A DNA stretch of 64,000 nt from an uncultured Poribacteria bacterium. Lineage in GTDB: Bacteria > Poribacteria > WGA-4E > WGA-3G. Position 1 is the stretch's first letter. Each line of letters starts with the position of its first letter. Location of the stretch: contig OX638352.1 in NCBI GenBank assembly GCA_951813545.1, positions 4,736,835 through 4,800,834 of the forward strand, in the 5' to 3' direction. Under the pieces are notes generated by a model. That model searched no databases, had not been told where the DNA came from, and was given only the letters and a program-made list of their open reading frames with translations. Positions 4,159-57,821 of this stretch are shown here, one piece after another. Made by a program: the position numbers and the translations under genes.

Positions 4159-5374
4159 TCCGCGACTCAGACAACCGCACCCGCCCCGTGAGGAGCTGCT
4201 GCATCATTCCCTGTTTGATGGAAATGGTTTTGTCCCGACGCTGCTCCAACGCCGCAATCTCGGCATCCATATCGGAAAGAATGCGAACGATAGCGTTCTG
4301 TTCTTTGACGCTCGGCATAAGGAAAGTAAAGTTTGCCATGTCCCGTCCATATAAGTGATAGACAGTTGTTCCTGATACAAGTTGCATCACCTGACTATGA
4401 TTTATCTTGATTACGTATGCGAGGAATGTTCCATTGAGGACATCAGCTGGAACGCGAATCACTAAGATATCGCCTCCAAGGATGACATTGGACATTGATA
4501 TACAACTTGCTGTTGCAAGACCATTAGGAGTTACATCCGATCCTGGCATCAGGACATCATTGGAGAGAGAAAGAAAAAACGTTCCTTCTCGATCAGTTCC
4601 ATGTAGAACTTTGGTGATACATTCGTCATAAGTTGTGAATAATTCTCCATAGTGGATACATCGCCTTTTCCCGTCAGGTGATAGGTCCGCTTTCGATAGA
4701 CCTGAGCCTTTAAAAAAAGATGAAATCTCGCCCAATCGCTTCACCTCCCACGCCCCGCTGAACCTAGGCAGGCGCGTCTGACCCGTCAGCAGTTGCTGCA
4801 TGGTGGCTTGCTTGATTGCCTGCTTCTTAGCGATGAGTGCGTCCAAGGCGTTGAGCAACCCATCCACATCCGACAATGCCTCGGCGATGGCGTGTTGTTC
4901 TGAAAGAGGAGGAAGAGGAATCTCAATATTCAGTAGGGTTCCCTTTGTAATTTCCTTAAATGTACTACCACTTGCAAGATCATTTAACTTCTCTTTTATA
5001 TATCTCAAATAGTAGGCGAGAAAGACATTTAATAGCGTCTCATGGCAAATAAAGTTAGCAAACCCTTGATTTGTCGCTATTGGAACGGTAGCGATTGCAG
5101 TTTCGCCAATTGTTGCTCGGCTAGTTAATAAAACTGTTCCCGCTGGTAGTAGTTTTGCAGCACTTTTACCTAATGCTTCTTCTGAAATATGTGTTGCTGT
5201 GTCATCAATGTACAAGGCGGAATCCAAAGCGGTAATGTCAGAAGGGATTGCCCAAGGAATATTGCCTCGAAAATATTTCACCACATCACGCTTTGGTGTT
5301 CCGCCTTTGGCAATCTCTGTTACCTCTCCTAATCTTACTACTTTCCAATGATCCTGTTTTGATTTTGCGCTCAT
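4136..5374 (-). CDS. hsdS: Type I restriction-modification specificity subunit (HsdS)
   Basis: 412 aa with two target-recognition-domain-like halves separated by conserved helical repeats (LLTGQTRLP / LLTGRVRL). It lies between hsdM and hsdR. Confidence 0.8.
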   Translation of the reverse strand: MSAKSKQDHWKVVRLGEVTEIAKGGTPKRDVVKYFRGNIPWAIPSDITALDSALYIDDTATHISEEALGKSAAKLLPAGTVLLTSRATIGETAIATVPIATNQGFANFICHETLLNVFLAYYLRYIKEKLNDLASGSTFKEITKGTLLNIEIPLPPLSEQHAIAEALSDVDGLLNALDALIAKKQAIKQATMQQLLTGQTRLPRFSGAWEVKRLGEISSFFKGSGLSKADLSPDGKRRCIHYGELFTTYDECITKVLHGTDREGTFFLSLSNDVLMPGSDVTPNGLATASCISMSNVILGGDILVIRVPADVLNGTFLAYVIKINHSQVMQLVSGTTVYHLYGRDMANFTFLMPSVKEQNAIVRILSDMDAEIAALEQRRDKTISIKQGMMQQLLTGRVRLSESRIDADDAD

Positions 5375-5429
5375 TAGAGTTCTTCTCCATTGGACTTTAT
5401 GGAAATATGAAAGCGGTAAATTCTTACAC

Positions 5430-7877: not shown

Positions 7878-8107
7878 ACCTGAATCCTTTCTTGTGATAT
7901 TGACAGCAATATACCAAAGGCGGCCGATTAAGTCAACAGGTTCCTGCTTTATACCGGAGCCGTTCAGTTTTTAGTTTTTTGTCGGTTATACGGGGAACTA
8001 AGTTGAAATCGGAGTGTTTTGCTTGGGTGTTTCTGCGGATTTCCGCCCCTCTTACAGAACGCGGAGGGCGAGGTTCCAAACCTCGTCAGCGGCAAGCAAG
8101 TGCCGAG

Positions 8108-9318: not shown

Positions 9319-9435
9319 TATAGTAAAGCCCATAATTATCTATCCATCAACCAAAGGGCGAGGATACAATCCTCGCCAGCGGTGGTGAGGGTTTTTTGTT
9401 TCCCAAATGTTAACTTATTTTCAGACTTTACTATA
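9319..9435. mobile_element. MITE-like ~117-bp element, copy A
   Basis: 11-bp terminal inverted repeats (TATAGTAAAG ... CTTTACTATA). Internal perfect 9-bp GC hairpin GGCGAGGAT-ACA-ATCCTCGCC followed by a T-run. It is near-identical to the copy at 44346..44463. Confidence 0.45.
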
Positions 9436-9466
9436 AGACTGTGGTGCGCGGAATTGATGAGATGTG

Positions 9467-10000
9467 CTACGGTGCTTCCGTGTAGTTCTCAATTGTTACC
9501 TTGTTCATTACATCACGTTCGCGTAGGGCATCTACTACATCCATTCCTTCAATAACCTTTCCGAATGTGGTATAGCTGCCGTTAAGATGTGCGTAAGGGC
9601 TTGGATCTGAACTGATACAGATATAAAACTGGCTTCCAGCGGAGTCAGGGTTCTGTGTCCGTGCCATAGCGACGACACCTTTTTCATGAGCTGGCATCTT
9701 TTCACGAAGGTCGGGGTCTTGGAATTCTCCCGGAATTGTCCATCCCGGTCCGCCTCTACCTGTCCCTTGTGGGTCGCCCCCTTGAATAACAAAACCGGGG
9801 ACATGCCGGTGAAAAATCACGCCATCATAATATCCGGTTTGGATCAACTGCGCGAAGTTTGCCACTGTGGCTGGAGCGGCTTCCGGATAAAGTTCAATAA
9901 TAATGTTTCCTTTTTCGGTTTCAATCGTTACATTGGGTAATTGATCAGTATTGCATGAGACAATCGCCGCGAAACACGCGCCTAATAAGCTAAATCGCAT
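9467..10000 (-). CDS. Peptidyl-prolyl cis-trans isomerase, cyclophilin type (PpiB-like), lipoprotein/secreted
   Basis: 177 aa. N-terminal signal with Cys (LLGACFAAIVSC). Cyclophilin motifs HRHVPGFVIQGGDP and FGKVIEGMDVV. Confidence 0.85.
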   Translation of the reverse strand: MRFSLLGACFAAIVSCNTDQLPNVTIETEKGNIIIELYPEAAPATVANFAQLIQTGYYDGVIFHRHVPGFVIQGGDPQGTGRGGPGWTIPGEFQDPDLREKMPAHEKGVVAMARTQNPDSAGSQFYICISSDPSPYAHLNGSYTTFGKVIEGMDVVDALRERDVMNKVTIENYTEAP

Positions 10001-10451
10001 AGATTTTGGTGTGAAAATTTGTGAATCTTCACGAATTCCTTTTTGGGTTTATCTTAATGTCACAAGGTTTACGCGAAATTAATTTTGTTCAGTAAATTCT
10101 CAACGTCAGCCTTATGTGGATTATATCAGAAATCTTCGAGGAGCGTCCTCATTCATACATAAATTCAGAAATGACGCTCTTAGCCAAGGCAAAAAGTTGA
10201 TATACATTATACACTTATTTGTGCGTGAAGTCAAGCAAAATTTTGAAGGCACTCTGTTTTCAGGTTTCTGTAAACCTCGCGTTTTTTGAAGAAAAGTAAA
10301 GCGATTAGCAATAATCATAACGAATTGAGTTGACATTATAAAATTCATTATATTGCCCAGGGAACCTGTATTCCAAAACAGGGTGTTTCTGACTCCGGGA
10401 GAATTCGCCTTGACGCTGCAAGTTTGGACATGGTACCCTATTAATTAGGAG

Positions 10452-11597
10452 GTGGTTGCAGTGCCAAACATCTCGATGGAAAATCAGAAAACACGCGAAT
10501 TATTTGCGACGCTGAAGTTGCTGTCACCAGGTACTTATCTGAGGGAAGGTATTGATTATATCATCCAAGGCAAAACGGGCGGACTCATTGTGATTGGTGA
10601 TACGCCAGAGATCCTGGATTTGACAGAAGGTGGCTTCCGGATTAATTGCCCATATACACCGACACGCTTATATGAGTTATCAAAAATGGATGGCGCAATT
10701 ATACTTTCTGAAGATATAAAGCGCATCGTGCGTGCCAATGTGACGCTGCGAACAAGCTCCTCTGTTCCTTCTACTGAGACAGGACTTCGCCATCGCTCGG
10801 CGGATAAGTTTGCTAAAGAGATTGAGCATATCGTTCTTGCTGTATCACAGAGTCGTAATACTCTCACCTTGTATCTCAAAAATCAGCATTATATCTTCCG
10901 GGAATGTCCGACGTTGCTTTCCGGTGCGAACCAAACAATGCTTGCACTCACACAGCACCTCAAGGCACTGCAAAGTGCCATTGCGATTCTCAATTGGGCA
11001 GAGTTACGTGGGAATGCCACCTTAGCGGATGTTATCACTGCTATCCAATTGTGTGAACGGGTTCGCCGCGCTGAGCGGGAGCTGATCCGCTACAGAATTG
11101 AACTGGGGACGCAGGCGGAATCGCTACAACACATTCCCGAACTTACAACCGAGATTGAAAGTGGACTTCTGATTACAAAAGATTACTATCATGAAAGTCT
11201 GCGCGACGCATCTGAAGCGTTTAAGAAGATTCTGGGACTTGACGCAAACAGTCTCGCAAGTCAGGGTAATATTAGTGAAGCTTTGGGATATCCAAGTGAT
11301 ATTCCGAACACTTTTGATGTTCTTAAACCGCGTGGCTACCGGATGTTGAGTCAAGTGCCTTGCATTCCATTCACTACAATTGAAAACATCGTTCACAAGT
11401 TCAAAACGTTGGACGAAATTTACACAGCTGCTGTTGACGAACTTCAGGCGGTTGATGGGGTAGGAAAGGCGGAAGCAGCAACTATCAAAGACACACTCGC
11501 ACAAATGAAAACAACGAGTGTCCATCCTCATGTTCTTGCTTTGTCAGTGCCAAATGGTGAAAAGAGAAACCAACCCTTGAAGGATTGTGTTTTTTAG
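10452..11597 (+). CDS. disA: DNA integrity scanning protein DisA (diadenylate cyclase DAC domain plus C-terminal HhH)
   Basis: 381 aa. DAC motifs DGAIIL and GLRHRSA. C-terminal helix-hairpin-helix (LQAVDGVGKAEAATIKD). Confidence 0.7.
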   Translation: MVAVPNISMENQKTRELFATLKLLSPGTYLREGIDYIIQGKTGGLIVIGDTPEILDLTEGGFRINCPYTPTRLYELSKMDGAIILSEDIKRIVRANVTLRTSSSVPSTETGLRHRSADKFAKEIEHIVLAVSQSRNTLTLYLKNQHYIFRECPTLLSGANQTMLALTQHLKALQSAIAILNWAELRGNATLADVITAIQLCERVRRAERELIRYRIELGTQAESLQHIPELTTEIESGLLITKDYYHESLRDASEAFKKILGLDANSLASQGNISEALGYPSDIPNTFDVLKPRGYRMLSQVPCIPFTTIENIVHKFKTLDEIYTAAVDELQAVDGVGKAEAATIKDTLAQMKTTSVHPHVLALSVPNGEKRNQPLKDCVF

Positions 11598-11715
11598 AAA
11601 CTCGTAACAAATCGGAGACACGCGGCGCACGTCTATTTTCGTGTATTGTGGTGTTTCCGCTTAGAAACTTCAGAAGAAGGACAACGTAATCCTTCTTCTC
11701 CCTTACATTATAGCG

Positions 11716-13116
11716 ATGCTATACAGAGAAAAAATTGACAATTCGACTGGAACCATGCACACACAAACAGATAAAAGGAGTCAGAAAATGAAAGGGTTCA
11801 TCGCTTTATCGCGGAAGGGCAATATTGCACTGGGTAGAATTCTACTCATCGCTCTGATTCTCGCTGCGTTCGGTTTGACAGGATGCGGTGGGAAACTCGG
11901 AAAGATTGAAACATCGACGGTTGACACGGCGATTGCGGACGCTGACACGGCGATTGCAGCAGCACAAGCCGTTGATGCACCTTCGCTTGCGTCCGATTTG
12001 TTTGAAGCCGCGAAAGCCAATCTTGAAGCTGCCAGAACAGCACTCACGGAAAAAAGAGGCAACGATGCACTTCGCCTTGCATATCAAGCGACTGCTGATG
12101 CTACAGTCGCAAGAATGAATTCCGTCAACACCACCAAAAACTCGGAATTGAATGCGTCTATACTTCAGAGGGAAGCTGAGGCAGAAGCACTTCGCCATAC
12201 GCTCGGAAATAAAGAGCGGAAACTCGCAAGGGTTGAATCTGAAATTAAGGACATTCACAAAGAGGAAGAGCAACTGAACCAGAAAGTTCGGAACCTCCAG
12301 AAAGATAACCGTCAGTTGAGAAATTCACGGGAAACTTTTGGAAAACAGGTGGCGCAGCTTTCTGAAACTTTGGAAGAAATTCAGGGACGTGCCCAACGTG
12401 CAGAAGTCGAGATCGGTAATTACGGCAAGGAGATTGCAGCACTCCGCCGGAAACTCGAAGTCGCCGAAAGACGGGTGAAAGAAGAAGGGCATCAGAAACG
12501 AGCGGTTGTTTCTGAAATAGATTCTCTGAGGAGGCAACTCCGCGAACAAGCACAAATCTATACTGAGAAACTCGCTCAGGCAAATCAGCAGAGCTCAGAC
12601 GCGGTGCATGCAGAATATCTCAAACAGAAGGCACAAGAGGCGCGCTCCTTTGTTGACAGTCAACCGCCACTTCACCCTGCTAAAACAGGACGTATTTCTC
12701 TCTCTGCAGAACAGATCGCAACTGGTAAGGCTGCGCTTGGTAATTGGGAACGCGCATGGCATGCGAAAAACCTCAGCGGACATCTTGCGTATTATGAACC
12801 CAATGTTATTGCCGACAAGGTCGTGATCCGCGAAAGCAAAGAGCAGCGGAGCAAAATTGATCTGCAGCAATTGGAATCCGAACTTCATCAAATGAGTGCT
12901 AACGGTTGGGGCAAAGCGAAAACTGACACCGAGGTTGAAGGTGAAAGCGTCATAGGTATCCACCGGCTGACCCAATTGGCTACGCCCGCAGCAGACGAAA
13001 ACGCTACGGCACTCTACAATATCTGGATTCGTGAAGTTTGGATGCATCAAGTCGGTAACGACTGGAAAATCCATCATGAAATCTGGCAAATCTATGAGAA
13101 CGTGCCGAATTTCTAA
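11716..13116 (+). CDS. Lipoprotein with a long coiled coil and a C-terminal NTF2/SnoaL(DUF4440)-like domain
   Basis: Lipobox-like LTGCGG. An approximately 250-aa E/K/R/Q-rich coiled coil. C-terminal W-x2-AW...Y..Y pattern, paralogous to the domains of the next gene, with conserved C-termini WKIHHEIWQIYENVPNF and WRIYSETWSRYEDVPDF. Confidence 0.5.
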   Translation: MLYREKIDNSTGTMHTQTDKRSQKMKGFIALSRKGNIALGRILLIALILAAFGLTGCGGKLGKIETSTVDTAIADADTAIAAAQAVDAPSLASDLFEAAKANLEAARTALTEKRGNDALRLAYQATADATVARMNSVNTTKNSELNASILQREAEAEALRHTLGNKERKLARVESEIKDIHKEEEQLNQKVRNLQKDNRQLRNSRETFGKQVAQLSETLEEIQGRAQRAEVEIGNYGKEIAALRRKLEVAERRVKEEGHQKRAVVSEIDSLRRQLREQAQIYTEKLAQANQQSSDAVHAEYLKQKAQEARSFVDSQPPLHPAKTGRISLSAEQIATGKAALGNWERAWHAKNLSGHLAYYEPNVIADKVVIRESKEQRSKIDLQQLESELHQMSANGWGKAKTDTEVEGESVIGIHRLTQLATPAADENATALYNIWIREVWMHQVGNDWKIHHEIWQIYENVPNF

Positions 13117-39270: not shown

Positions 39271-39888
39271 TGGGTTTCTTCTTTTTAGCCAAAGATCGAG
39301 AGCCTGAAACGAAGTGAAAGGGTTTTTGCTTGGGGGTTTCTTCAGATCTACGTAAAAGAATGTTAAATCCCAAACTATACTAACCGAACCACAAGGAATA
39401 ATTAAGAATAGCGGGTTTCTTTTTTTTACCCAAAGATCGTGAGCCTGAAACGAAGTGGAGGGCGGATCTACGTAAAAGAACGTTAAATCCCAAACCATAC
39501 TAACCGAACCGCAAGGAACAATTAAGAATAGCGGGTTTCTTCTTTTTAGCCAAAGATCGCGAGCCTGAAACGAAGTGGAGGGCGGATCTACGTAAAAGAA
39601 CGTTAAATCCCAAACCATACTAACCGAACCGCAAGGAACAATTAAGAATAGCGGGTTTCTTCTTTTTAGCCAAAGATCGCGAGCCTGAAACGAAGTGGAG
39701 GGCGGATCTACGTAAAAGAACGTTAAATCCCAAACCATACTAACCGAACCGCAAGGAATAATTAAGAATAGCGGGTTTCTTCTTTTTAGCCAAAGATCGC
39801 GAGCCTGAAACGAAGTGGAGGGCGGATCTACGTAAAAGAACGTTAAATCCCAAACTATACTAACCGAACCGCAAGGAATAATTAAAAT
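39269..39888. repeat. Tandem repeat, 5 units of ~120 bp (first unit 141 bp), filling the whole PQQ-M16 intergenic region
   Basis: Unit AGCGGGTTTCTTCTTTTTAGCCAAAGATCGCGAGCCTGAAACGAAGTGGAGGGCGGATCTACGTAAAAGAACGTTAAATCCCAAACCATACTAACCGAACCGCAAGGAACAATTAAGAAT. Unit boundaries at 39410, 39530, 39650 and 39770. Units 3 and 4 are identical. The array ends 1 nt before the ATG at 39889. Confidence 0.9.
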
Positions 39889-42882
39889 ATGGAAACAACT
39901 CGGACACCAGAGGTAAACTTACGTCCCGGCGAACAACTTCACGGCTTTGAGGTGAAAGCCGTTACACCGATCGACGAATTGCGAGCAGTGACAATTGAAT
40001 TGGCACACCAACATAGCGGTGCCCGCCTGCTACATCTCTATACAAACGATACGGAAAATCTCTTCTCCATTAATTTCCCGACCCCGCCATCAGACGATAC
40101 CGGCGTACCCCATATTCTTGAACATGCTGTTTTGGCAGGCTCACACAAATTTCCGGTTAAAGAGCCCTTCTTTGAAATGATTAAAATGAGCATGGCAACA
40201 TTTATTAACGCCATGACAAGTGCCGATTTTACATGCTATCCGGTATCAAGCAACGTAAAAAAAGACCTTTTCAACTTGGCAGAAGTTTACTTTGACGCGG
40301 TCTTCCATCCACTACTGACCGAAAATACTTTCAAGCGTGAAGGACATCATCTCGCACCCGTCGATCCGGATGACCCTACAGGCGATTTAAAGATAACGGG
40401 TATCGTCTATAATGAGATGAAAGGCGCATTCTCAGATCCTGAAGCTCGGTTATATCGATCAATGACATGTCAACTCCTTCCAGATACGCTTTACGCATGT
40501 GAATCCGGCGGCGATCCAGATGCCATTCCGGATTTGACCTACGCGCAGCTCAAAGGATTTCATGAAACCTATTATCACCCAAGCAACGGCTATTTCGTTC
40601 TGTACGGGGACATTCCGACGAGCGACTATCTCACGTTCCTCGCCGATAAGTTAGATAAAATCCCAAAGAATGCTGCGAGTGCCTCTCTACGACCGCTAAG
40701 CCCGGAGGTCACACACCAACCGAAGTGGGATGCGCCACGGGCTGTAACGGATACCTACCCTGTCGGCGCAGATGAAGCACTCACAGAAAAAACATATATG
40801 ATGCTCAGTTGGTACATCGGAGAAGCGACCAAACCGGAAGCAGTTGTTTTAGGACGCATTTTGAGCCTTATACTGCTTGGCAATGAAGCCGCACCGCTCC
40901 GTAAAGCGATAATCGATTCCAAACTCGGTGCAGACCTCATCTATTCCGGTGCCAGTTCCATCGGACCCGCAGCTACTTTTCACGTTTCCCTCAAAGGGAG
41001 CGAAGTCGATCGCGTTGAAGCCTTCACACAACTCGTCACCGATACCCTAACAGCGATTGCGAATTCAGAGATTAATAACGAAAAGGTGGAAGCAGCGTTC
41101 CAACAAGCGACATACTATTACCAAGAAGTCGCTTCAATGTTCCCGCTCCGCATGCTCTACCGTGTCATTGAAGGCTGGATATATGAAAAAGATTCGGACA
41201 CCTTCCTAAAGATGGGAAAAACGCTGACTGATGTTCGTCAGCAGTGGCTGGAAAATCCATCAATTTTCAACGACTTCATCCGCGAGCATCTCATTGAGAA
41301 TCCACATCGTCTGACAAGTGTGTTGTCTCCTGATCAGGACATGCAGGCGAAAATGGATGCTGAACTCGCCGAACGGATGAAAGAGACACGGACACAACTC
41401 ACTGATGAAGAGGTACGGCAAATCGCCGCTGATGCTGCGGAACTCGAACGCCTCAACGGCGTCCCCAATTCGCCGGAAGCACTCGCAAATCTGCCACAAC
41501 TCCAAGTCAGCGATCTTCCCGATAAACCGAAACATTTTCCGAGAACAGTCGAAAATGTCGGTGGTCGGGATCTGCTCCGCAGCGATGTTTTTGCCAATGG
41601 TGTTAACTACCTTGTGCTCAACTTCAATTTACACGGGTTACCACAGCACCTCTGGACCTATCTACCCAGATATGCTGACGCTATTAGCAAACTCGGTGCC
41701 GCTGATATGAGTTATGAAGAGATGGCACAGCGGACATCTGCCGTCACCGGTGGTATTGGATGCTCACCGTGGTTTTCTACACACACACTCGATGCCAATC
41801 GTTCCATGCAGAGTATATCCTTTCACCTCAAAGCACTCGATGGGAAAATGGATGCCGCGCTCGATGTCTTGCACGATTTACTGTTTGCTGTGAACCCACG
41901 CGATACGGAACGCCTCCGGGACGTACTGGTTCAAGCGGTTGCAGAATATCAGACAGAAATGATCCACGACGGCTCAAGTACTGCGGTTCATCACGCTTCA
42001 CGTGGACTTTCGTCGAATGCGCATCTCGCCGAAATCATCTATGGTCTACCCCAACTCCGCAACAGCGAAACGCTCTTCAACGATTTTGACGAACTTCATA
42101 CCGACCTTATGGGTCATATAGAAGGAGTTCGCGATTTCCTGCTAACCCGTGAACGGGTGACCGCCAGCTTCACCGGTTCGGATACCGCTTTTGAAACGAC
42201 GCGAACCAAACTCGGTGAGTGGCTTGACGCGATGCGGAACGAGCCTGTTATTTCAGAACCGATTGCGTTCCAGCAGTTTGATACACCACCGAGAGAGGGA
42301 TTAGCCGGTCCCATTCAGATTGCGCATTGTGCGCATGTAATGCCGGCACCGCACTACTCCGATCCGGATTCAACGCTGCTGACGATCGGGGCGCATCTCA
42401 TTCGACTGGATTACATACTGAGTGAAATCCGCTTTAAAGGCAACGCTTATGGTGCCAGATTCAGCTATAGTCCTTATGACGCAGTCCTGTGTCAATCCTC
42501 GTATCGCGACCCACACGTCGCACGCACGATCAACGTCTTCGAGCAAACCGTTGATTACGTTAAACAGGTGGAATGGACACAAACAGACATAGACCGCGCG
42601 ATTATTGCTACGGCAAAAGATGGTGAGAAACCGATGCGTCCAGGTTTAGCTGCGAGAGAGGCACTGAGTCAACATCTTGTGGGGCAGACGCGCGAGATGC
42701 GAGAGGAACGCTACGCGCAACTCCGACGTGCCACCCCTGCTGAGGTGAAACGCGCGCTCCTTCAACTTTTAGAGGGAAACCGAGATAAAGCCGCGGTGTG
42801 TGCCGTTTCCAGTCGTGAAAAACTGGAAGCCGCAAACAGTGAATTAGCACAACCGCTTGTCATTGAGGATATTTTATCCTAA
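39889..42882 (+). CDS. M16C-family zinc metallopeptidase (PreP/pitrilysin-like)
   Basis: 997 aa. Inverted zinc motif HILEHAVLAGS (HxxEH) and downstream NEMKG glutamate. Length is typical of M16C. Confidence 0.8.
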   Translation: METTRTPEVNLRPGEQLHGFEVKAVTPIDELRAVTIELAHQHSGARLLHLYTNDTENLFSINFPTPPSDDTGVPHILEHAVLAGSHKFPVKEPFFEMIKMSMATFINAMTSADFTCYPVSSNVKKDLFNLAEVYFDAVFHPLLTENTFKREGHHLAPVDPDDPTGDLKITGIVYNEMKGAFSDPEARLYRSMTCQLLPDTLYACESGGDPDAIPDLTYAQLKGFHETYYHPSNGYFVLYGDIPTSDYLTFLADKLDKIPKNAASASLRPLSPEVTHQPKWDAPRAVTDTYPVGADEALTEKTYMMLSWYIGEATKPEAVVLGRILSLILLGNEAAPLRKAIIDSKLGADLIYSGASSIGPAATFHVSLKGSEVDRVEAFTQLVTDTLTAIANSEINNEKVEAAFQQATYYYQEVASMFPLRMLYRVIEGWIYEKDSDTFLKMGKTLTDVRQQWLENPSIFNDFIREHLIENPHRLTSVLSPDQDMQAKMDAELAERMKETRTQLTDEEVRQIAADAAELERLNGVPNSPEALANLPQLQVSDLPDKPKHFPRTVENVGGRDLLRSDVFANGVNYLVLNFNLHGLPQHLWTYLPRYADAISKLGAADMSYEEMAQRTSAVTGGIGCSPWFSTHTLDANRSMQSISFHLKALDGKMDAALDVLHDLLFAVNPRDTERLRDVLVQAVAEYQTEMIHDGSSTAVHHASRGLSSNAHLAEIIYGLPQLRNSETLFNDFDELHTDLMGHIEGVRDFLLTRERVTASFTGSDTAFETTRTKLGEWLDAMRNEPVISEPIAFQQFDTPPREGLAGPIQIAHCAHVMPAPHYSDPDSTLLTIGAHLIRLDYILSEIRFKGNAYGARFSYSPYDAVLCQSSYRDPHVARTINVFEQTVDYVKQVEWTQTDIDRAIIATAKDGEKPMRPGLAAREALSQHLVGQTREMREERYAQLRRATPAEVKRALLQLLEGNRDKAAVCAVSSREKLEAANSELAQPLVIEDILS

Positions 42883-47092: not shown

Positions 47093-47299
47093 TGGTGCCT
47101 CCTATTTAAAGCCTTTTTTATACCGATATATACTCGCAACGTGTGATTACGAGAAAATTAAGAACGTCATAATGAATATTGCTGTTACTATTTTAACTTG
47201 CACTTATTTATATTTTCCACTATAATTTCGGTCAATGCCATTTAGTTCACACCCAGCCATTCAGTTATCAGTTTTCTACCCGTTTTGTGTCGGGTGTCG

Positions 47300-47580
47300 T
47301 GGTTTGGGGATCCCTTCTACAGAAGGGATCGGGAATTGGAGTTCCTTCCTACAGAAGAGTCGGGAATCGGAGTTCCCTCCTACAGAAGAGTCGGGAATCG
47401 GAGTTCCCTCCTACAGAAGGGATCGGGAATTGGAGTTCCTTCCTACAGAAGAGTCGGGAATCGGAGTTCCCTCCTACAGAAGAGTCGGGAATCGGAGTTC
47501 CTTCCTACAGAAGAGTCGGGAATCGGAGTTCCCTCCTACAGAAGAGTCGGGAATCGGAGTTCCCTCCTACAGAAGAGATG
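47300..47580. repeat. Tandem array of about nine 31-bp repeats in a divergent promoter region
   Basis: Unit GGGAATCGGAGTTCCCTCCTACAGAAGAGTC, with variants GGGAATTGGAGTTCCTTCCTACAGAAGGGATC. Each unit has an internal dyad GGGAA-N6-TTCCC. A solo copy lies at 37241..37266. Confidence 0.85.
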
Positions 47581-47605
47581 GCTTTCATAATTTGAGGAGA
47601 AAACA

Positions 47606-47893
47606 ATGGCTGCGAAAAAACTTTCAGACGCTGAAATTCAGGAAAACCTTGAACAACTCAACGGTTGGACAGTGGAAGACGGTAAACTGCACAAGGAATA
47701 TCAGTTTGACACCTTTGTTACAGCCTTCGGTTTTATGACACAACTCGCCCTAATCGCGGAATCCATGAATCACCACCCCGAATGGTTTAACGTCTATAAC
47801 CGTGTGACAATTGATTTGATGACACACGATGCAGGTGGCATCAGTGAATTGGATTTTCAATGGGCAAAGCACGCGGATTCGATTAGTGGATAA
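47606..47893 (+). CDS. Pterin-4a-carbinolamine dehydratase (PCD/DCoH)
   Basis: 95 aa. EYQFDTFVTAFGFMTQLALIAESMNHHPEW is the classical PCD core. Confidence 0.85.
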   Translation: MAAKKLSDAEIQENLEQLNGWTVEDGKLHKEYQFDTFVTAFGFMTQLALIAESMNHHPEWFNVYNRVTIDLMTHDAGGISELDFQWAKHADSISG

Positions 47894-50091: not shown

Positions 50092-50808
50092 CTATGCCGG
50101 TATCATTTTCCGAACGCCATTTTCATAGCGGACCTGATAATCGGTACCCGGCACGTCCATTGCCCGGACGGCAAGCTCGCCGAATGTAATCAGTGGCTCA
50201 GAAAGTAGTAGCAGTTCATCGAGCGATTCGGTCGGTGTTTTGTCCGTTGTGTCCAGCACAATTTTGCGTCCACTCTGCGTAAACAGAGATTTGTCGATCT
50301 CCTCCTGAAACAGGCGATTAAGCGTCGGAATATCGGCTTCCTTGATAATCTGGTATTCGTGCGGATCTGTTTTCATCCGTTCCTTAATTGCCGCGTCACT
50401 GGCGGTGACGTGGATCATCACGACATCCGGCAATCGTGCTTCGATAACCTGCGTTTCATAGCCGCGCTGTGCATTGACGTGGTATCTGGGGTAATATGTG
50501 CTTTCTGGGTCATCCCCATAGAAGGACGAGTAAACGAGTTCCTCAATGTGCCACCCTGCGATCATAGTATTCGGATAGTTTTTTATCACCTCAACGTGAT
50601 ACTGGAGCTGCATCCTTTGCATCCGTTCTTTCACGTCGTCCGGGAAATTTATGTACGCCGCTCTTGATTCTGGGCTGAGCGTTGAATCAGGAATCGTGAA
50701 GTGATCATCAACGTGAACCCTCAATTTCCGATGCTGGTAATAGCCAGTTAATAGGTTAACTAATGTCGATTTTCCTGCATATTCGATACCGACAAAAATA
50801 CATCTCAT
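50092..50808 (-). CDS. P-loop NTPase, (deoxy)nucleoside/nucleotide-kinase-like
   Basis: Start refined to ATG 50808. The ORF-track N-terminal extension to 51258 overlaps a plus-strand gene and looks non-coding. Walker A IFVGIEYAGKSTLVNLL resembles dNK/dTMP-kinase P-loops. 238 aa. Confidence 0.5.
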   Translation of the reverse strand: MRCIFVGIEYAGKSTLVNLLTGYYQHRKLRVHVDDHFTIPDSTLSPESRAAYINFPDDVKERMQRMQLQYHVEVIKNYPNTMIAGWHIEELVYSSFYGDDPESTYYPRYHVNAQRGYETQVIEARLPDVVMIHVTASDAAIKERMKTDPHEYQIIKEADIPTLNRLFQEEIDKSLFTQSGRKIVLDTTDKTPTESLDELLLLSEPLITFGELAVRAMDVPGTDYQVRYENGVRKMIPA

Positions 50809-50985
50809 GAAAAAGACCTCGCTATTGAATAGATAGATGGACAACTTACTACACACTATGTTATATGTATCACGAAAGTAGAAAAATGTCAAATATCTAT
50901 TCCAATTTTTCGGTCGTCTTGACAATCGGACATTTGCAAGGTATAATAACTTTAATCTCAACGGCTTTAATACACGGAGGCACAG

Positions 50986-51255
50986 ATGGAAAAAAATCAG
51001 ACCGTCAAAATCCAAAATCCGGAATACGGAGACATCTATACTGCCCACATCGAAAAAAATGGTGCAGGGTGGATAGGACAGATACAAGAGGTTCCCGAAG
51101 TGCAGTGTGAAGGAAGCACGCCGGAAGCACTGCTCGAAATTCTCAAAACCGAACTCCACGAAGTCCTCATAGCTCGTGCTGATGCCTGGGATAAACAGAT
51201 CGAGGAAGATATAAAAGCCGGGCGACTCGATCATCTTTTGGCACCTGTTGGGTAG
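50986..51255 (+). CDS. HicB-like (UPF0150) antitoxin-fold protein with a C-terminal addiction-module-like tail
   Basis: GGAGG RBS 6 nt upstream. YTAHIEKNGAGWIGQIQEVPEVQCEGSTPEALLEILKTELHEVL matches the HicB/UPF0150 fold pattern. No HicA partner is adjacent. Confidence 0.5.
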   Translation: MEKNQTVKIQNPEYGDIYTAHIEKNGAGWIGQIQEVPEVQCEGSTPEALLEILKTELHEVLIARADAWDKQIEEDIKAGRLDHLLAPVG

Positions 51256-52520: not shown

Positions 52521-53345
52521 ATGGAAAAAATACCCTTTATGAAACTCAGCGGTGCAGGCAACGACTTCGTCATCATTAATAATCTGGCGGAAATCGTTGA
52601 TAGCACCGACACGAATTTTGTGCAAAAACTCTGCCAGCGTCGTATGTCGGTTGGGGCTGATGGTGTGCTTCTTGTTGAAAAAGCGGACGGCGTTGATTTT
52701 CGCATGCGCTATTTCAACGCTGATGGCGGTGAAGTAGAGACGTGTGGAAATGGCGCACGCTGTATTTCCAAGTTCGCTTATCTGAATGGGATCGCGTCTG
52801 AAAAAATGCGGTTTCTGACGAACGCTGGAATTTATGAATCCGAGATAGTGGGTACAAACGTTAAAGTCCGTATGAGCGATCCGACGGACATCCGACTAAA
52901 CGTTCCGCTCCATTTAGACGATGGGATGCATACCGTTGGGTTCGCGAACAGCGGCGTACCGCACGTCGTTTTCTTTGTAGAAGATTTGGAAGAAACAGAG
53001 GTCTTTGACTTAGGACAACAAACGCGTTATCACAACGATTTCAAACCTGATGGTACCAATGCGAATTTTATCCGTGTTCAATCCTCAGGGTTAATTGACA
53101 TCCGGACGTATGAACGTGGTGTTGAAGATGAGACGCTCGCCTGTGGCACAGGATCAATCGCCTCTGCTATTGTCGCTGCGACATTAGGCAAAGTCGTCTC
53201 ACCGGTTTCCGTTAAGACAGCGAGTGGAGTCGTTTTGAAGATTCATTTTGATGTGGAGAATGGCGCAGCGCAAAACGTATACCTTGAAGGCGACGCTCGC
53301 GTTATCTACGTCGGTGAACTCACAACAGACGCATGGGATTATTAA
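52521..53345 (+). CDS. dapF: Diaminopimelate epimerase
   Basis: MKLSGAGNDFVIINN N-terminus. Active-site ETCGNGARC and second catalytic Cys (LACGTGS). Confidence 0.9.
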   Translation: MEKIPFMKLSGAGNDFVIINNLAEIVDSTDTNFVQKLCQRRMSVGADGVLLVEKADGVDFRMRYFNADGGEVETCGNGARCISKFAYLNGIASEKMRFLTNAGIYESEIVGTNVKVRMSDPTDIRLNVPLHLDDGMHTVGFANSGVPHVVFFVEDLEETEVFDLGQQTRYHNDFKPDGTNANFIRVQSSGLIDIRTYERGVEDETLACGTGSIASAIVAATLGKVVSPVSVKTASGVVLKIHFDVENGAAQNVYLEGDARVIYVGELTTDAWDY

Positions 53346-53393
53346 AAGTAGCACGCACACGCCGTTGTGCCGTAGCCAGCAAGGAGGGTTTAC

Positions 53394-54269
53394 ATGTTTC
53401 AAGGCTCTTATGTTGCACTGGTCACACCATTTAAGGACGATGAATCGCTTGACGAAGCGAAACTCAAGGAACTGATTCAATTTCAGCTTGACGGCGGCAC
53501 ACATGGCATCGTCCCGTGTGGCACAACAGGTGAATCTCCTGCGCTGTCTGAGGCTGAACACGATAGGGTGATAGAACTCACAGTTGAGACTGTGAGTGGA
53601 CAGGTGCCTGTTATTGCGGGCACGGGTTCCAACTCGACGACACGCACCTTGCGCGCGACAGAACACGCTAAAGTCGCTGGTGCGGATGCCGCCCTGATTG
53701 TCACCCCCTATTACAACAAACCGACCCAAGAAGGGTTATATGCCCACTACATGAAAATCGCCGACACGGTGGACATCCCGATCGTTGTCTATAACGTTCC
53801 GGGACGGTGTGGGACTGACATCCTTTCACCTACCATCGCAAGGCTTGCAGAGCACCCAAACATCGTTGCACTTAAGGAAGCAACAGGTGAACTGAAACGC
53901 GCCAGCGAAGTCATCAACTTATGTCCCGATGACTTTGTTGTGCTTTCCGGCGATGATGTCAATACCCTACCGATTATGGCTGTCGGTGGTAAAGGTGTGA
54001 TTTCGGTTGTGGCGAACATCGCACCCGCAGATGTTGCGGAGATGTGTAATGCGTTCCACGCGGGGAATCTTGAACTCGCCCGCAAACTTCACTATAAAAC
54101 GTTGCCGCTGGCGGTTGACCTCTTTATTGAGACGAACCCAATTCCTGCGAAAACCGCGCTCCAGTTGATGGGCAAACTCAACGGGAAATTGCGACTGCCG
54201 CTTGTCCCGATGGTTCCCGCGAACCTTGAGTCCTTACGCAATACACTTTCGGAAACGGGTTTGATTTAG
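53394..54269 (+). CDS. dapA: 4-hydroxy-tetrahydrodipicolinate synthase
   Basis: VALVTPFKDDESLD ... GTHGIVPCGTTGESPALSEAEH. Schiff-base lysine context (ALKEATG). Confidence 0.9.
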   Translation: MFQGSYVALVTPFKDDESLDEAKLKELIQFQLDGGTHGIVPCGTTGESPALSEAEHDRVIELTVETVSGQVPVIAGTGSNSTTRTLRATEHAKVAGADAALIVTPYYNKPTQEGLYAHYMKIADTVDIPIVVYNVPGRCGTDILSPTIARLAEHPNIVALKEATGELKRASEVINLCPDDFVVLSGDDVNTLPIMAVGGKGVISVVANIAPADVAEMCNAFHAGNLELARKLHYKTLPLAVDLFIETNPIPAKTALQLMGKLNGKLRLPLVPMVPANLESLRNTLSETGLI

Positions 54270-54289
54270 TGAAAAAAGTGGAAGGTGCG

Positions 54290-54757
54290 ATGTTCCAATC
54301 GCTCCTTCTTCTTTTAATTGGGGGCATCAAAATGTCTGACGGTTCTATGGAACACATCCAAAACCGTGTGAATTCTGACCTGCGTCGTCAGTTTCGCTCT
54401 TTTCGTGGTTTTATAAAGAAACCTAAAAAGTCATGGTCTGCCGCTACCTTAAAGTGGTTTTCACTCTACAGCATTGGGATTTTGGCGGGCATGTGGGCTT
54501 TTATTCTTGACTGGACTAAACTGGAGCCGTGGATCGGATTCGTCGTGATTTCAGGAGTGATAGCGATTATTGTTGTGCCTATTCTATTCGTAGAGAACGC
54601 GCGTCTAATTGGTAAACCTCACAATGGACAACCCCGAATCAACAGCTATATCAATACCCTCATATTCATTGGGCTTGCTGTTGGGACCGCATTAGTAGGC
54701 TGGTTCGCAGGAACATCAGCGAGGCAGTTCATAGAGATTGTTACGTCCAGCCCGTAG
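54290..54757 (+). CDS. Small integral membrane protein (hypothetical)
   Basis: Three to four predicted TM helices. Start placed at ATG 54290, with a GGAAGG RBS. The GTG at 54269 is an alternative start. Confidence 0.4.
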   Translation: MFQSLLLLLIGGIKMSDGSMEHIQNRVNSDLRRQFRSFRGFIKKPKKSWSAATLKWFSLYSIGILAGMWAFILDWTKLEPWIGFVVISGVIAIIVVPILFVENARLIGKPHNGQPRINSYINTLIFIGLAVGTALVGWFAGTSARQFIEIVTSSP

Positions 54758-54802
54758 AATAATTGATCTTGTGAAATCCAACGAAAAGAATGGAGTCTAC
54801 TC

Positions 54803-55822
54803 ATGAGTGATTGGCAGTGGAAAAATCAAATAAAAAAGCGTGATGGTTATGTTTGTCGTCGATGTGGATTTGACAAAAATTTGCATGTCCATCACATTTT
54901 GCCTAAAGACAAATATCCTTACGAACAGGATTATCCTCCGAACGGACTTACGCTTTGTGGAAATTGTCATTCACTCCTGAAGGACAAAGAAGAGCAAACT
55001 GATCTCCGAGGGTTCTTCCCAGATGACCAAGAAATTGATGAACAACTAAAATATTTAAGCGAAAATGTGTCAATGAATGAAAGTCAGCGGGTACTTCTTG
55101 AAGGGAAAGAGGCACAAAGAATAAATAGGTCGGTGAAGTGTGAATTTCGATTAGGAAAGAAAAGATCCAAGCAGAAACAGTATGAATTAGCAATTTTTGC
55201 TTATGATAATGTTATCCATTTAAAATCAGATTTCGTTGAAGCGTACTATTATCGGGGAAAAGCAAAATATGAACTGAAACGGTATAAAGCTGCAATTTAT
55301 GATTATGACAACGCACTCCGGCTAAGACCTGATAATGTCAGTGTTTACTTCAATCGGGGTTTGGCGAAGTACGCCCTTGGACAATATAAGTCTGTGATTA
55401 CCGACTACAACATGGTCATCCGATTCACTCCGGATAATGTCAGTGCTTACTTCAATCGGGGTTTGGCGAAGTACAAATTAGGGCGACATGATACTGCGAT
55501 TATTGACTTTGACGAGGCGATTTCCCTCAAACCTGATTTTGCAAAAGCCTACTACTATCGCGGAAAAGCGAAGTATAAACAAGAATCACATGACGCTGCT
55601 ATTACTGACTTTGACGAAGTGATTCGTCTCAACACAGATTTTGCTGAAGCCTACCACTATCGTGGACTAGGGAAGTGCAAATTGGGGCAACATGATGCTG
55701 CTATAACCGACTATGATACCGCTAACAGACTCAACCCTGAAATCTGTTATTATGTCTTGCTTCAGAAGATATTCGGTTTGGATAGCTCTGTTATAAGGGA
55801 ACTTGCAGGCAATCCCAGTTAA
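54803..55822 (+). CDS. HNH endonuclease domain fused to about seven TPR repeats
   Basis: N-terminal CRRCGFDKNLHVHHILPKD...NGLTLCGNCH (HNH with a zinc ribbon). Repeated AYYYRGKAKYELKRYKAAIYDYDNALRLRPD-type TPR units. Confidence 0.65.
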   Translation: MSDWQWKNQIKKRDGYVCRRCGFDKNLHVHHILPKDKYPYEQDYPPNGLTLCGNCHSLLKDKEEQTDLRGFFPDDQEIDEQLKYLSENVSMNESQRVLLEGKEAQRINRSVKCEFRLGKKRSKQKQYELAIFAYDNVIHLKSDFVEAYYYRGKAKYELKRYKAAIYDYDNALRLRPDNVSVYFNRGLAKYALGQYKSVITDYNMVIRFTPDNVSAYFNRGLAKYKLGRHDTAIIDFDEAISLKPDFAKAYYYRGKAKYKQESHDAAITDFDEVIRLNTDFAEAYHYRGLGKCKLGQHDAAITDYDTANRLNPEICYYVLLQKIFGLDSSVIRELAGNPS

Positions 55823-55868
55823 TGCCTTTATACCGTGATATTCTCCGCCAGAGAAAGGTTATGCCGTA

Positions 55869-56474
55869 ATGAGTTATAGCAATTTCACGCTGGAATCAGC
55901 GTTAGCGACGTTTCAACTGGAAAAGGTTGAATCTGCAGGTACCTTTTCTAAGATAGAGCCGATCACTCCAAGTGACTATCTCACAACCGGATTGGCGAAA
56001 AAGGTAGCTCTGGCAGCTGCCATTGGAACCGAGAAAGCACGCTCCGAGCTAATTGTTGCCGACGTCCTTGTTGAACTCCGGGAAAAGTTTGAATACCGTA
56101 TTAGTTTCTTTTCAGGAATTGATTTTAATGTTGATCCTGAAAAAGACTTAACAGGGATTTGTGATTTTTTGGTAAGTCTGTCACCAGGACAACTTTTTTT
56201 AGAAGCACCTCTCATCATTCTTGTTGAGGCGAAGAAGGACGACCCGAAACTCGGTCTGGGGCAATGTGTTGCCGAGATGCTCGCTGCCCAACGTTTTAAT
56301 GCTGAAAAAGGGAATGACCTCCCTGCCGTTTACGGTGCTACCACGACAGGCACAGAGTGGCAGTTCCTCAAATTGGCGGGAAAGAACCTACAAATTGATA
56401 TGGAAATTTATCCGATTCAGCAGTGTGACAAAATTCTCGGTATCCTTTCCAGCATGGTAAACCAAGAGGCGTGA
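55869..56474 (+). CDS. Hypothetical protein with a PD-(D/E)xK nuclease-like core
   Basis: ICDFLVSL (Asp) then IILVEAKKD (E-x-K), with spacing typical of the restriction-endonuclease-like fold; 201 aa. Confidence 0.4.
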   Translation: MSYSNFTLESALATFQLEKVESAGTFSKIEPITPSDYLTTGLAKKVALAAAIGTEKARSELIVADVLVELREKFEYRISFFSGIDFNVDPEKDLTGICDFLVSLSPGQLFLEAPLIILVEAKKDDPKLGLGQCVAEMLAAQRFNAEKGNDLPAVYGATTTGTEWQFLKLAGKNLQIDMEIYPIQQCDKILGILSSMVNQEA

Positions 56475-56501
56475 AGGACATCCCTACCGCGAATCTCGTA
56501 C

Positions 56502-57821
56502 TTACCGCCTATAATCTGCTGGCAACAGTCGATGCACAGTATCAATCACTAACTGCTCGACACCGGTGGCAAATCGCGTCGGTGGACCAAAATAAAGCAT
56601 CGCACCGCCCCCTTCATAGCCGCCTTCGGCTAACACACGTTCCGACGGGATATAGCACGGAAACGCGTTCGCATACGCACCTACCCACAGCCTTTCAACA
56701 TCCAATTCGCGCTTCAGGCGCAGTGAATAATCAACCACGACTTCACTCGCAAGGAAAACAACGGCGAGTTCATCACCGAAACTCCACGCTTGTACGGGAT
56801 AGGAGAGTTCCGTTTGTATGGGTTGTCCTTTCTGTAAACGTTCGAGGTGTTTCTGGGCATGATAGGCATCCGAACCACCTCCTGCAACTCGTGCCTCCCA
56901 TTCTTCACGGGTCGGTAGTGTATCAAACGGCAGATTAACTCTTTCAAACGCGCCGGTCGGGACCTTGGAGATTGGCTTGGTATCTCTCTTCAGCATCTGT
57001 TGAATTTCCTTTGAAAGTGCTTCCCCGTGTGTTTTCGCATAGGCAAGGCGAGTACTAAAGACTTCTTCTTGTCCATCCGGCATCGGCATCATCCGTGATT
57101 CGGGGTTCGCATCGGCACCACATCCGATTGTGATTAAAGCGGTTACACCGGGAAGTGCGTCTTGGATTGCGTCTTGTGCGTATCCTGCCCAGTCGCCACA
57201 GATGTGGTTGTCTGTGCCAGCCAACGTTGTACAGTGGCAGGCGTAACTTGCCCACACGGCGCGTAATGTACCGTCTAAACCTGCGACCTGCATACACGGC
57301 AACGAGTGATCTACCGGTCCACCTTCGGTTCGCCGATTTTTGGCGAATCCGAGTTCACCGATACTCCATGTCAACCGGGACGGTTCCCGATTCGCGAGTG
57401 CTTCCAGTGCGACGGCTTCCATCCAATCAGTGATTTGATTGGTATAGTGCTCAATCGTTTCCTGTTGTTCTGAGGGGATATCCGAGCTGAATAAAAATGG
57501 TGCAGCGTTTGTTAGACAGGGCGCGCTATGCGTGTGTGTGAAACATGCTGCAAAGTGGGCGCGGGAGATCCCCGTTTTCTGCTTGATTCGGCGCGACACC
57601 TCTTCGGTTAGTTCATCCGGTAAACCGCAATTTTCGACTGTCACTAAAACAACAGGATCATCTGCATCGCTGCCGATAGCGAGTGCCTTCGACCATATCC
57701 GCTGGATAATACCGTCAGATTCTGCGCGACGGCTTCCGTAACCGCTGAGCCGAATCGGATAATCTGGCGTAATATCTACTTCGGCGACACCAATCTGAAT
57801 AACACTATTTTTATCTGCCAT
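56502..57821 (-). CDS. Neutral/alkaline ceramidase-like hydrolase (N-terminal domain family)
   Basis: N-terminal IGVAEVDITPDYPIRLSGYG resembles the ceramidase GxAxxDITP start; 439 aa. Confidence 0.5.
   Translation of the reverse strand: MADKNSVIQIGVAEVDITPDYPIRLSGYGSRRAESDGIIQRIWSKALAIGSDADDPVVLVTVENCGLPDELTEEVSRRIKQKTGISRAHFAACFTHTHSAPCLTNAAPFLFSSDIPSEQQETIEHYTNQITDWMEAVALEALANREPSRLTWSIGELGFAKNRRTEGGPVDHSLPCMQVAGLDGTLRAVWASYACHCTTLAGTDNHICGDWAGYAQDAIQDALPGVTALITIGCGADANPESRMMPMPDGQEEVFSTRLAYAKTHGEALSKEIQQMLKRDTKPISKVPTGAFERVNLPFDTLPTREEWEARVAGGGSDAYHAQKHLERLQKGQPIQTELSYPVQAWSFGDELAVVFLASEVVVDYSLRLKRELDVERLWVGAYANAFPCYIPSERVLAEGGYEGGGAMLYFGPPTRFATGVEQLVIDTVHRLLPADYRR

Follow-up and report, generated by a model that had tools for sequence, protein, structure and literature searches.

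Two genes encoding different nuclease folds, lying side by side behind a small membrane-protein gene, raise the question of whether neighbors of this kind form one defense system. They occur in a 64,000-nucleotide stretch of the genome of an uncultured bacterium of Candidatus Poribacteria, a group of sponge symbionts (GenBank assembly GCA_951813545.1, contig OX638352.1, positions 4,736,835 to 4,800,834; this whole stretch is called the window below). The interval studied here lies between dapA and a convergent ceramidase-like gene and holds three co-oriented open reading frames (ORFs), which encode a small membrane protein, a protein joining an HNH nuclease module to tetratricopeptide repeats (HNH-TPR) and a standalone 201-aa protein of PD-(D/E)xK type. 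An initial annotation, made from the sequence alone, had read the three as a defense or abortive-infection cassette inserted after dapA. The ORFs lie exactly where it had placed them (Table 1), but the genomic comparisons favor a different answer, namely that the interval is an old accessory-gene islet of Candidatus Poribacteria filled with independent single-gene modules that do not form one system. We assign this reading a probability of roughly 0.6.

The evidence comes in the first place from what occupies this slot in the window and eleven relatives with core flanks 86-98% identical (amino acid identities of 94-98% for DapA, 79-96% for DapF and 82-92% for the ceramidase; relatives and other loci carry L numbers). 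The membrane gene, HNH-TPR and the 201-aa gene fill the slot in the window, and HicA, HicB, HNH-TPR and the 201-aa gene do so in L088. L008 has HicB, HNH-TPR and ORFs of 70 and 400 aa and has lost the 201-aa gene outright, while L006 carries a 145-aa ORF, a HicB fragment, HNH-TPR, a 107-aa ORF, a 33-aa remnant of the 201-aa gene and a duplicated membrane protein. The 201-aa gene is preceded by HicA and HicB in L001 and L017, by a leucine-rich repeat (LRR) protein in L010 and by an alpha/beta-hydrolase in L011, and it stands alone, 144-300 bp after dapA, in four empty-site relatives (L009, L012, L014 and L016). Overall, it is intact beside the ceramidase gene in 10 of the 12 genomes, window included, at a distance of 144 bp to 1.6 kb from dapA. 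At the DNA level (blastn), homology between the window and the empty-site relatives stops at the dapA stop (54268) and restarts 0-18 nt before the start codon of the 201-aa gene, and the relatives with other cargo (L001, L010, L011 and L017) likewise show no homology from 54269 to ~55851-55869. None of the relatives compared carries DNA homologous to the membrane-gene segment (54269-54745) at this site. Presence pattern and DNA homology together therefore indicate that the 201-aa gene is resident, HNH-TPR facultative and the membrane gene private to the window genome. The suggestion that the locus downstream of dapA would prove variable among relatives is borne out for the slot, but not for the 201-aa gene. 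The initial annotation had stated that synteny with dapA in relatives, which would mark core genes, combined with failure of the PD-(D/E)xK assignment would overturn its reading; the 201-aa gene is indeed conserved in synteny, yet the assignment holds.

Furthermore, each of the three genes occurs without the others across genomes and contexts, which speaks directly against a single unit. The 201-aa gene is found without HNH-TPR in at least eight genomes at the slot after dapA, here called site A (L001, L009-L012, L014, L016 and L017), and at ~70 other loci; HNH-TPR is found without the 201-aa gene in L008, L089-L091 and L099 and with a remnant of it only in L006 and L007. We observe synonymous divergence (dS) of 0.67-0.85 for HNH-TPR and 0.67-1.03 for the 201-aa gene, equal to that of the flanking dapA, dapF and ceramidase genes (0.42-1.6), indicating that both nuclease genes co-diverged with the locus and contradicting their recent insertion. 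HNH-TPR carriers are scattered over a neighbor-joining tree of the flanking genes, and this scatter, together with the flank-like dS, points to old presence plus losses. The simplest history is then an old arrangement of HicAB, HNH-TPR and the 201-aa gene followed by repeated losses, with no recent cassette insertion. L088 probably still shows the ancestral content, HicA-HicB together with HNH-TPR and the 201-aa nuclease; lineages would have lost different pieces, and the window genome would have swapped HicAB for the small membrane-protein gene. In L006, an unannotated 107-aa ORF without a PADLOC match (7284-7607, minus strand) lies beside the 33-aa C-terminal remnant of the 201-aa gene (7794-7892), and the pair is direct evidence of islet decay. 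What survives of the proposed cassette is therefore a variable islet in a neighborhood of defense or toxin-antitoxin type, with HicAB in the same slot, and not one co-functional inserted unit.

With respect to the 201-aa protein itself, we obtained no match in Pfam, NCBIfam or PHROGs, and neither sequence nor profile searches revealed a relative of its family among PDB sequences. The PADLOC profile PDLC01472 ("PD_DExK, CAS-associated") matches it with an E value of 7.7e-49 (aa 54-199 on positions 2-142 of 146). Only some family members reach PDDEXK_12 (E = 4.5e-4) and HSDR_N_2 (E = 1.1e-3), both weakly, one UniRef member is named "Type I restriction enzyme R protein N-terminal domain," and matches in a viral library are weak and mostly to PD-(D/E)xK, Cas4 and YqaJ nucleases. 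A first AlphaFold2 (AF2) model from a shallow alignment (27 sequences, ≥80% identical) had a predicted local distance difference test score (pLDDT) of 75, a misfolded core and no significant Foldseek match. The model used here, built on a 74-sequence alignment with cyanobacterial members, has a pLDDT of 95.2, a predicted TM-score (pTM) of 0.92 and an alpha-beta-beta-beta-alpha-beta core. In it, strand 97-103, the second of the core, carries D99, the third strand (114-120) has E120-x-K122 at its end, and the preceding helix (55-73) opens with E55, so that the model and residue conservation both display the D...(D/E)xK motif of the superfamily. Across 155 family copies, D99, Q141 and N144 are 100% conserved, E120 98%, K122 99% and E55 98-99%, and variability between copies is concentrated mainly in aa 11-50, 71-80, 121-130 and 171-180. 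The significant Foldseek matches (E < 1e-3) are to a mitoribosomal protein chain given by entry name alone, which we take to be mL37, a protein of restriction-endonuclease-like fold; the next are the nuclease domains of DrdV (7lo5, E = 3e-3) and BpuSI (3s1s, E = 0.026). As judged by profile, predicted model and fold search, the protein belongs to the PD-(D/E)xK superfamily, and the initial call stands. It would accordingly be described as a metal-dependent nuclease, probably a homodimer by likeness to other small restriction-fold enzymes. Unlike the type IIG/IIL enzymes DrdV and BpuSI, whose nuclease domains are the best nonribosomal structural matches of the model, it has no fused or adjacent methyltransferase or specificity domains, and identity to them is ~10%.

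This protein belongs to a large family that falls into 1,922 clusters at 50% identity and consists almost entirely of standalone proteins of ~200 aa. The phyletic distribution is patchy and dominated by Poribacteria and cyanobacteria, with members abundant in filamentous cyanobacteria, where they are annotated as "hypothetical," and present on 20 cyanobacterial plasmids; no phage copies were found in the collections searched. Among species-representative genomes, a scan recovered 79 loci, all in Poribacteria and several per chromosome, with 155 near-full-length copies (154 of them intact) that are all arranged head-to-tail on the same strand. Copy number per site ranges from 1 to 8, with tandem arrays of 2-8 genes separated by gaps with a median of 30 bp, the largest being L079 with eight genes (one partial) and L038 with six. 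Arrays with paralogs ~60-75% identical and gaps of 15-50 bp are seen, for example, at L079 4778-9494, L038 4715-8603, L040 4314-9904, L035 6003-9222 and L073 5453-8603, with ~40 further loci among L025-L087, and a single chromosome (CATQHZ020000001.1; L062, L078 and L079) carries at least 13 copies. Median identity within an array is 70%, and 93 of the 98 arrayed copies have their nearest relative in another genome (median identity, 90.5%); the arrays are therefore old maintained sets of diverged paralogs and not recent duplications. Besides site A, at least eight conserved chromosomal sites can be told apart by their flanks, all without any HNH-TPR. By sequence reading, array sites lie downstream of dnaK, trpA, nuoLMN and dapA and upstream of pyrR-pyrC, with BrnT/BrnA-like, PIN and DUF433-type toxin-antitoxin genes, a WD40-trypsin protein, TnpB and HsdR as neighbors.

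Since Poribacteria keep many paralogs in operon-like tandem arrays, we read the family as a multispecificity set, in which a fixed active site and surface segments that vary between paralogs would yield nucleases with different target specificities. These genes most likely work in genome conflict, of defense or addiction type, each gene on its own. A few further observations concern the family. The copies after nuoN (site B, L005 and L019) and those after dapA share one 80%-identity cluster, as would result from movement of the gene between sites or from reciprocal paralog loss. TnpB genes (cluster c48) recur near several of the loci, and in L009 an extra ORF of the family (5127-5702, 28% identical) lies between dus and dapF within the otherwise conserved dus-dapF-dapA run.

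In cyanobacteria, the Trichormus variabilis member (L092, 7001-7597) lies within an ABC transporter operon of branched-chain amino-acid type, with the permease gene on one side and the ATPase gene on the other (gaps of 50 and 33 bp), and HicA-HicB comes after the ATPase gene, two genes further downstream; a second cyanobacterial member sits in a dense toxin-antitoxin islet with Uma2 genes. The closest parallel for such genomic behavior is Uma2 (DUF820, PF05685), which is likewise a standalone PD-(D/E)xK protein of ~190-200 aa, multicopy in cyanobacteria and placed among toxin-antitoxin genes, and which shares islets and plasmids with the 201-aa family. The two are separate families, as neither the window protein nor 47 other members match PF05685 at E values up to 1. 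Membership in Cas4 was also considered and discarded, with no profile match. The profile PDLC01472 derives from a type III CRISPR accessory cluster of 9 members named "PD-DExK" (cluster 45 in Shah et al. 2018, PMC6546367), which was described, with no functional test, as a "possible nuclease" having a PD-(D/E)xK motif. Its profile covers nearly the whole length of the window protein, but the family described here differs in its ~1,900 clusters, its tandem arrays and its lack of type III cas adjacency (window, 79 Poribacteria loci and two cyanobacterial contexts). No CRISPR-cas genes were found near the loci examined in detail, which comprise Poribacteria and the two cyanobacterial contexts, and the "CAS-associated" label is therefore unsupported here.

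Turning to HNH-TPR, Pfam PF01844 matches aa 18-59 (E = 1.1e-5, 26.0 bits against a gathering score of 21.4), and PHROG HNH families match with a best E value of 2.4e-11. In an alignment of 29 full-length homologs, with identities down to 38%, C18, C21, H30, H31, N47, C52 and C55 are invariant and H56 is conserved at ≥90%, which places both the zinc-ribbon cysteine pairs (C18/C21 and C52/C55, CxxC...CxxC) and the beta-beta-alpha-Me residues (H30/H31, N47 and H56). With its catalytic and zinc-binding positions unchanged even in homologs of 38% identity, the HNH active site is maintained. Strong conservation extends over the stretch directly after the HNH motif (aa 58-85), in contrast to a variable linker (aa 96-125) and a TPR array that differs between homologs, also in repeat number. 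The TPR_11 and TPR_1 models each detect six stretches (E = 6e-43 and 1e-39), and a 102-bp DNA periodicity at 55466-55716 is explained by the repeats. The proposed fusion of a zinc-ribbon HNH domain to TPRs is thereby confirmed, with six clear repeats in place of the roughly seven first counted and a degenerate seventh possible. The ratio of nonsynonymous to synonymous substitution rates (omega) is 0.23-0.27 for the whole gene (HNH part, 0.09-0.23; linker, 0.32-0.58; TPR part, 0.24-0.27), against 0.02-0.08 for core genes and 0.07-0.11 for the 201-aa gene. About 30 full-length HNH-TPR proteins of 348-437 aa were recovered by database search, apparently all from Poribacteria-type assemblies; no model in any library searched (Pfam, NCBIfam, PADLOC and PHROG) covers the whole architecture, and we found no description of such a fusion in Poribacteria in the literature.

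Outside site A, distant homologs of HNH-TPR (39-46% identity) adjoin an AbiJ-like gene in L089 and L090 and a DDE transposase in L099, and in L091 the homolog lies 40 bp downstream of a 655-aa ATPase of OLD/AriA/GajA/PtuA type; transposase, ParA and integrase genes occur in the same region. No constant partner gene was found across the loci compared. This suggests, at the level of gene content, that HNH-TPR is an autonomous conflict-type gene, a reading based on its AbiJ-like, ATPase or transposase neighbors and the missing constant partner. We propose that the protein acts as an autonomous nuclease in which the fast-evolving TPR array may bind a protein or peptide ligand and so gate or target the HNH domain, giving a sensor-effector logic without an NTPase; architecture and context, and nothing else, are the grounds for this mechanism. 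The same order of an N-terminal nuclease effector and a TPR array is known from STAND/NLR-like antiviral proteins (Avs and bNACHT), but HNH-TPR, at 339 aa, is far smaller and has no NTPase between effector and repeats: none was matched in Pfam, NCBIfam or PADLOC, and only the 30 linker residues separate the two parts. TPR arrays 40-55% identical to that of the window protein follow trypsin-like protease, TIR (TIR_2), FRG or HSDR_N domains, and effector-plus-TPR proteins of ~500 aa occur among P0141-P0240 (e.g., P0162, P0156, P0150 and P0235). This looks like effector swapping and perhaps hints at an "effector-TPR" protein class in the same communities, but the signal is soft, because TPRs close to the consensus make unrelated TPR proteins look more alike than they are.

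PADLOC models returned no system match; the only similarities are weak HNH matches to Septu PtuB and to PDC-M01B. For PtuB, HNH-TPR aa 9-125 align to positions 24-141 of 227 (E = 8.1e-7, 27 bits), over the HNH module and the helical stretch after it, a level typical of generic HNH matches, as is the match to PDC-M01B (E = 1.1e-6). PtuB has no TPR array, and an ATPase gene is not adjacent to HNH-TPR in the window, L006, L008 or L088. In the window, the interval from dus to the ABC gene encodes no PtuA-type ATPase, and among the HNH-TPR homologs only the distant one in L091 has one. We therefore reject an identification of HNH-TPR as PtuB on the weak score and the missing PtuA. HicAB, which fills the slot directly upstream of HNH-TPR or the 201-aa gene in relatives, is not present in the window itself and has no sequence relationship to the three genes.

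The small membrane protein has two strong transmembrane helices (aa 82-100 and 123-141) and a weaker one (~55-75) by hydropathy. It was said to overlap the dapA stop codon (54267-54269), which is true of the version starting at GTG 54269; the 155-aa version from ATG 54290, which has a plausible Shine-Dalgarno motif (GGAAGG) 4 nt upstream, begins 20 nt after the stop. Searches of PADLOC, PHROG and NCBIfam gave no match and a metagenome scan no close relatives; the sole relative found is a 209-aa ORF of L006 that holds the module twice (28-43% identity). A YLATT three-transmembrane domain (PF20303) was considered and rejected, since the match (16.8 bits, E = 0.0064) stays under the cutoff of 26.7 bits and counts as no more than a lead. 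Nothing in the PADLOC or PHROG results ties the protein to defense, and it is best seen as a passenger specific to this lineage, probably independent of both nucleases.

Table 1. Features of the dapA-ceramidase interval in window coordinates
Feature	Coordinates	Strand	Basis or remark
dapA, dihydrodipicolinate synthase	53394..54269	+	Pfam DHDPS, E = 2.9e-96; conserved left boundary of the variable slot
Variable islet segment (membrane gene and HNH-TPR)	54269..55850		Missing in empty-site relatives (blastn)
Small membrane protein, 155 aa	54290..54757	+	ORF; mechanical ORF from GTG 54269 has 162 aa
HNH-TPR gene, whole, 339 aa	54803..55822	+	
HNH nuclease module, aa 1-95	54803..55087	+	Pfam HNH/HNH_2, PHROG HNH, PADLOC PtuB and PDC-M01B, alignment
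Linker between HNH module and TPR array, aa 96-125	55088..55177	+	Most divergent part of the homolog alignment
TPR array, aa ~126-339, six clear repeats	55178..55822	+	TPR_11, E = 6e-43; TPR_1, E = 1e-39
Predicted standalone PD-(D/E)xK nuclease, 201 aa, site A ortholog of the multicopy family	55869..56474	+	PADLOC, AF2, Foldseek
Neutral/alkaline ceramidase-like gene, convergent	56502..57821	-	Pfam Ceramidase_alk, E = 5.9e-15; conserved right boundary

The three genes are separated by gaps of 45 bp (membrane gene to HNH-TPR) and 46 bp (HNH-TPR to 201-aa gene). GC content is 0.37-0.43 over 54750-56250 against ~0.50-0.53 in the flanks, and at third codon positions it reaches 0.55 in dapA but 0.43 in the 201-aa gene and, within HNH-TPR, 0.40 over the TPR part and 0.32 over the HNH part. 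The window has neither a tRNA nor a CRISPR array, and no Rfam family reaches the gathering score, so that nothing of this kind marks an integration site; cas genes are likewise absent. Promoter- and terminator-like sites in 53300-56700 are not more frequent than in shuffled sequence. Elsewhere in the window, an 89-aa ORF upstream of dus (50986-51255, plus strand) coincides with a GC dip to 0.40 (50500-51250) and recurs in 1-2 tandem copies, 56-89% identical, at the same place in L001, L008, L009, L012 and L014; by eye it has the look of a HicB/UPF0150-like antitoxin and would be a second small variable spot nearby. A 120-bp tandem repeat (39345-39889; 4.6 copies, 97% identical) ends exactly where a 997-aa ORF starts (39889..42882, plus strand), and a 31-bp (or 94-bp) repeat of 8.5 copies (47311-47577) lies within the ORF 47235..47738 (plus strand), representing either a repetitive protein or a noncoding array miscalled as an ORF. 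In L001, a Tn5-type transposase and an IS200/IS605 TnpA-TnpB pair (9332-12386) are inserted just past the ceramidase and 387-aa genes.

Four other explanations of the locus have to be weighed. The one that joins all three genes into a single cassette inserted downstream of dapA draws on their common orientation and short gaps, the low GC content relative to the flanks, the variability of the slot between relatives and the adjacency of HNH-TPR and the 201-aa gene in L088 as well, but it is largely refuted by the presence/absence pattern described above, with a membrane gene unique to the window genome, and it also has to contend with the flank-like dS and the missing PADLOC system match; we regard it as very improbable. 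That the nuclease genes are selfish elements of homing or addiction type, persisting in or beside essential operons without benefit to the host, strikes us as equally far-fetched. The Trichormus member inside a transporter operon, the Poribacteria copies at the 3' ends of housekeeping operons, the toxin-antitoxin pairs nearby and the resemblance of the HNH core to phage and plasmid HNH endonucleases would all fit such elements, but positional orthologs across species and flank-like dS imply little recent movement, the window site shows no terminal repeats, tRNA or integrase, and strong purifying selection on ~30 paralog groups is hard to explain without a function.

The remaining two explanations, each of which we consider improbable without dismissing it as readily, concern one nuclease each. 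TPR proteins form a hallmark "eukaryote-like" class in sponge symbionts and HNH DNases act as toxins in colicins, and HNH-TPR may thus be a host-interaction protein or a delivered DNase toxin instead of an intracellular antiphage protein. Its apparent restriction to Poribacteria-type assemblies, the fast evolution of its TPR array, the LRR protein in the same slot of L010 and the WD40, LRR and cadherin proteins in related islets agree with this, but no signal peptide, secretion or delivery domain is evident in the protein, which opens directly with the HNH module, no conserved immunity gene was found beside it at the loci compared, and its neighbors are toxin-antitoxin, Abi (abortive infection) or ATPase genes and not secretion genes. 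The 201-aa proteins, for their part, might be housekeeping paralogs that process or repair cellular DNA or RNA, as their low omega, similar to that of neighboring core genes, their almost entirely intact copies and their positions, fixed across species directly downstream of dnaK, trpA, nuoN and dapA on the same strand, would lead one to expect. Copy numbers of 1 to 8 per site, the outright loss in L008 and the remnant in L006 are at odds with that role, as are arrays mixed with toxin-antitoxin genes (BrnT/BrnA-like, PIN and DUF433-type), TnpB and HsdR, cyanobacterial members in toxin-antitoxin islets and on plasmids, and the patchy phyletic distribution.

We therefore return to the old islet of independent modules, against which several points nevertheless count. 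In the window and L088 at least, and probably in three or four further genomes, HNH-TPR directly neighbors the 201-aa gene in the same orientation (gaps of 30-46 bp), so that co-transcription and functional cooperation are possible there. The strong purifying selection on the 201-aa paralogs and their fixed sites by housekeeping genes also fit a cellular role, the TPR array could serve host interaction instead, the likeness of the 201-aa model to restriction enzymes is modest (TM-scores of 0.42-0.45), and the flank-gene tree over which the HNH-TPR carriers are scattered has no support values. Going further than the islet reading, one could imagine that Poribacteria, and less densely filamentous cyanobacteria, hold a germline-like PD-(D/E)xK repertoire that would serve as an innate, methyltransferase-free restriction battery of many specificities, accompanied by HNH-TPR as a minimal single-chain sensor-effector immune protein whose TPRs would recognize an invader protein directly, without a STAND NTPase. 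The repertoire would comprise at least about 30 paralog groups in arrays of up to eight at fixed sites, all sharing one active site but differing in their specificity surfaces; we think this idea rather unlikely to be right.

For the interpretation of such loci, the value of the comparison is corrective, as two adjacent nuclease folds in one genome are not evidence of a system and synteny dissolves the apparent cassette into modules. The locus is also a record of how islets of accessory genes lying between core operons are eroded and filled again in uncultivated symbionts. HNH-TPR, with invariant catalytic residues and fast-evolving repeats, is a compact candidate for a sensor-coupled nuclease. 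The most interesting lead lies outside the framing of the initial annotation, in the tandem-array organization of an uncharacterized PD-(D/E)xK family without a Pfam entry, previously known as a nine-member CRISPR-accessory cluster, which has thousands of members. Its maintained arrays in sponge symbionts are unusual and make it a candidate for a new class of solo nuclease genes that may act in defense or addiction.

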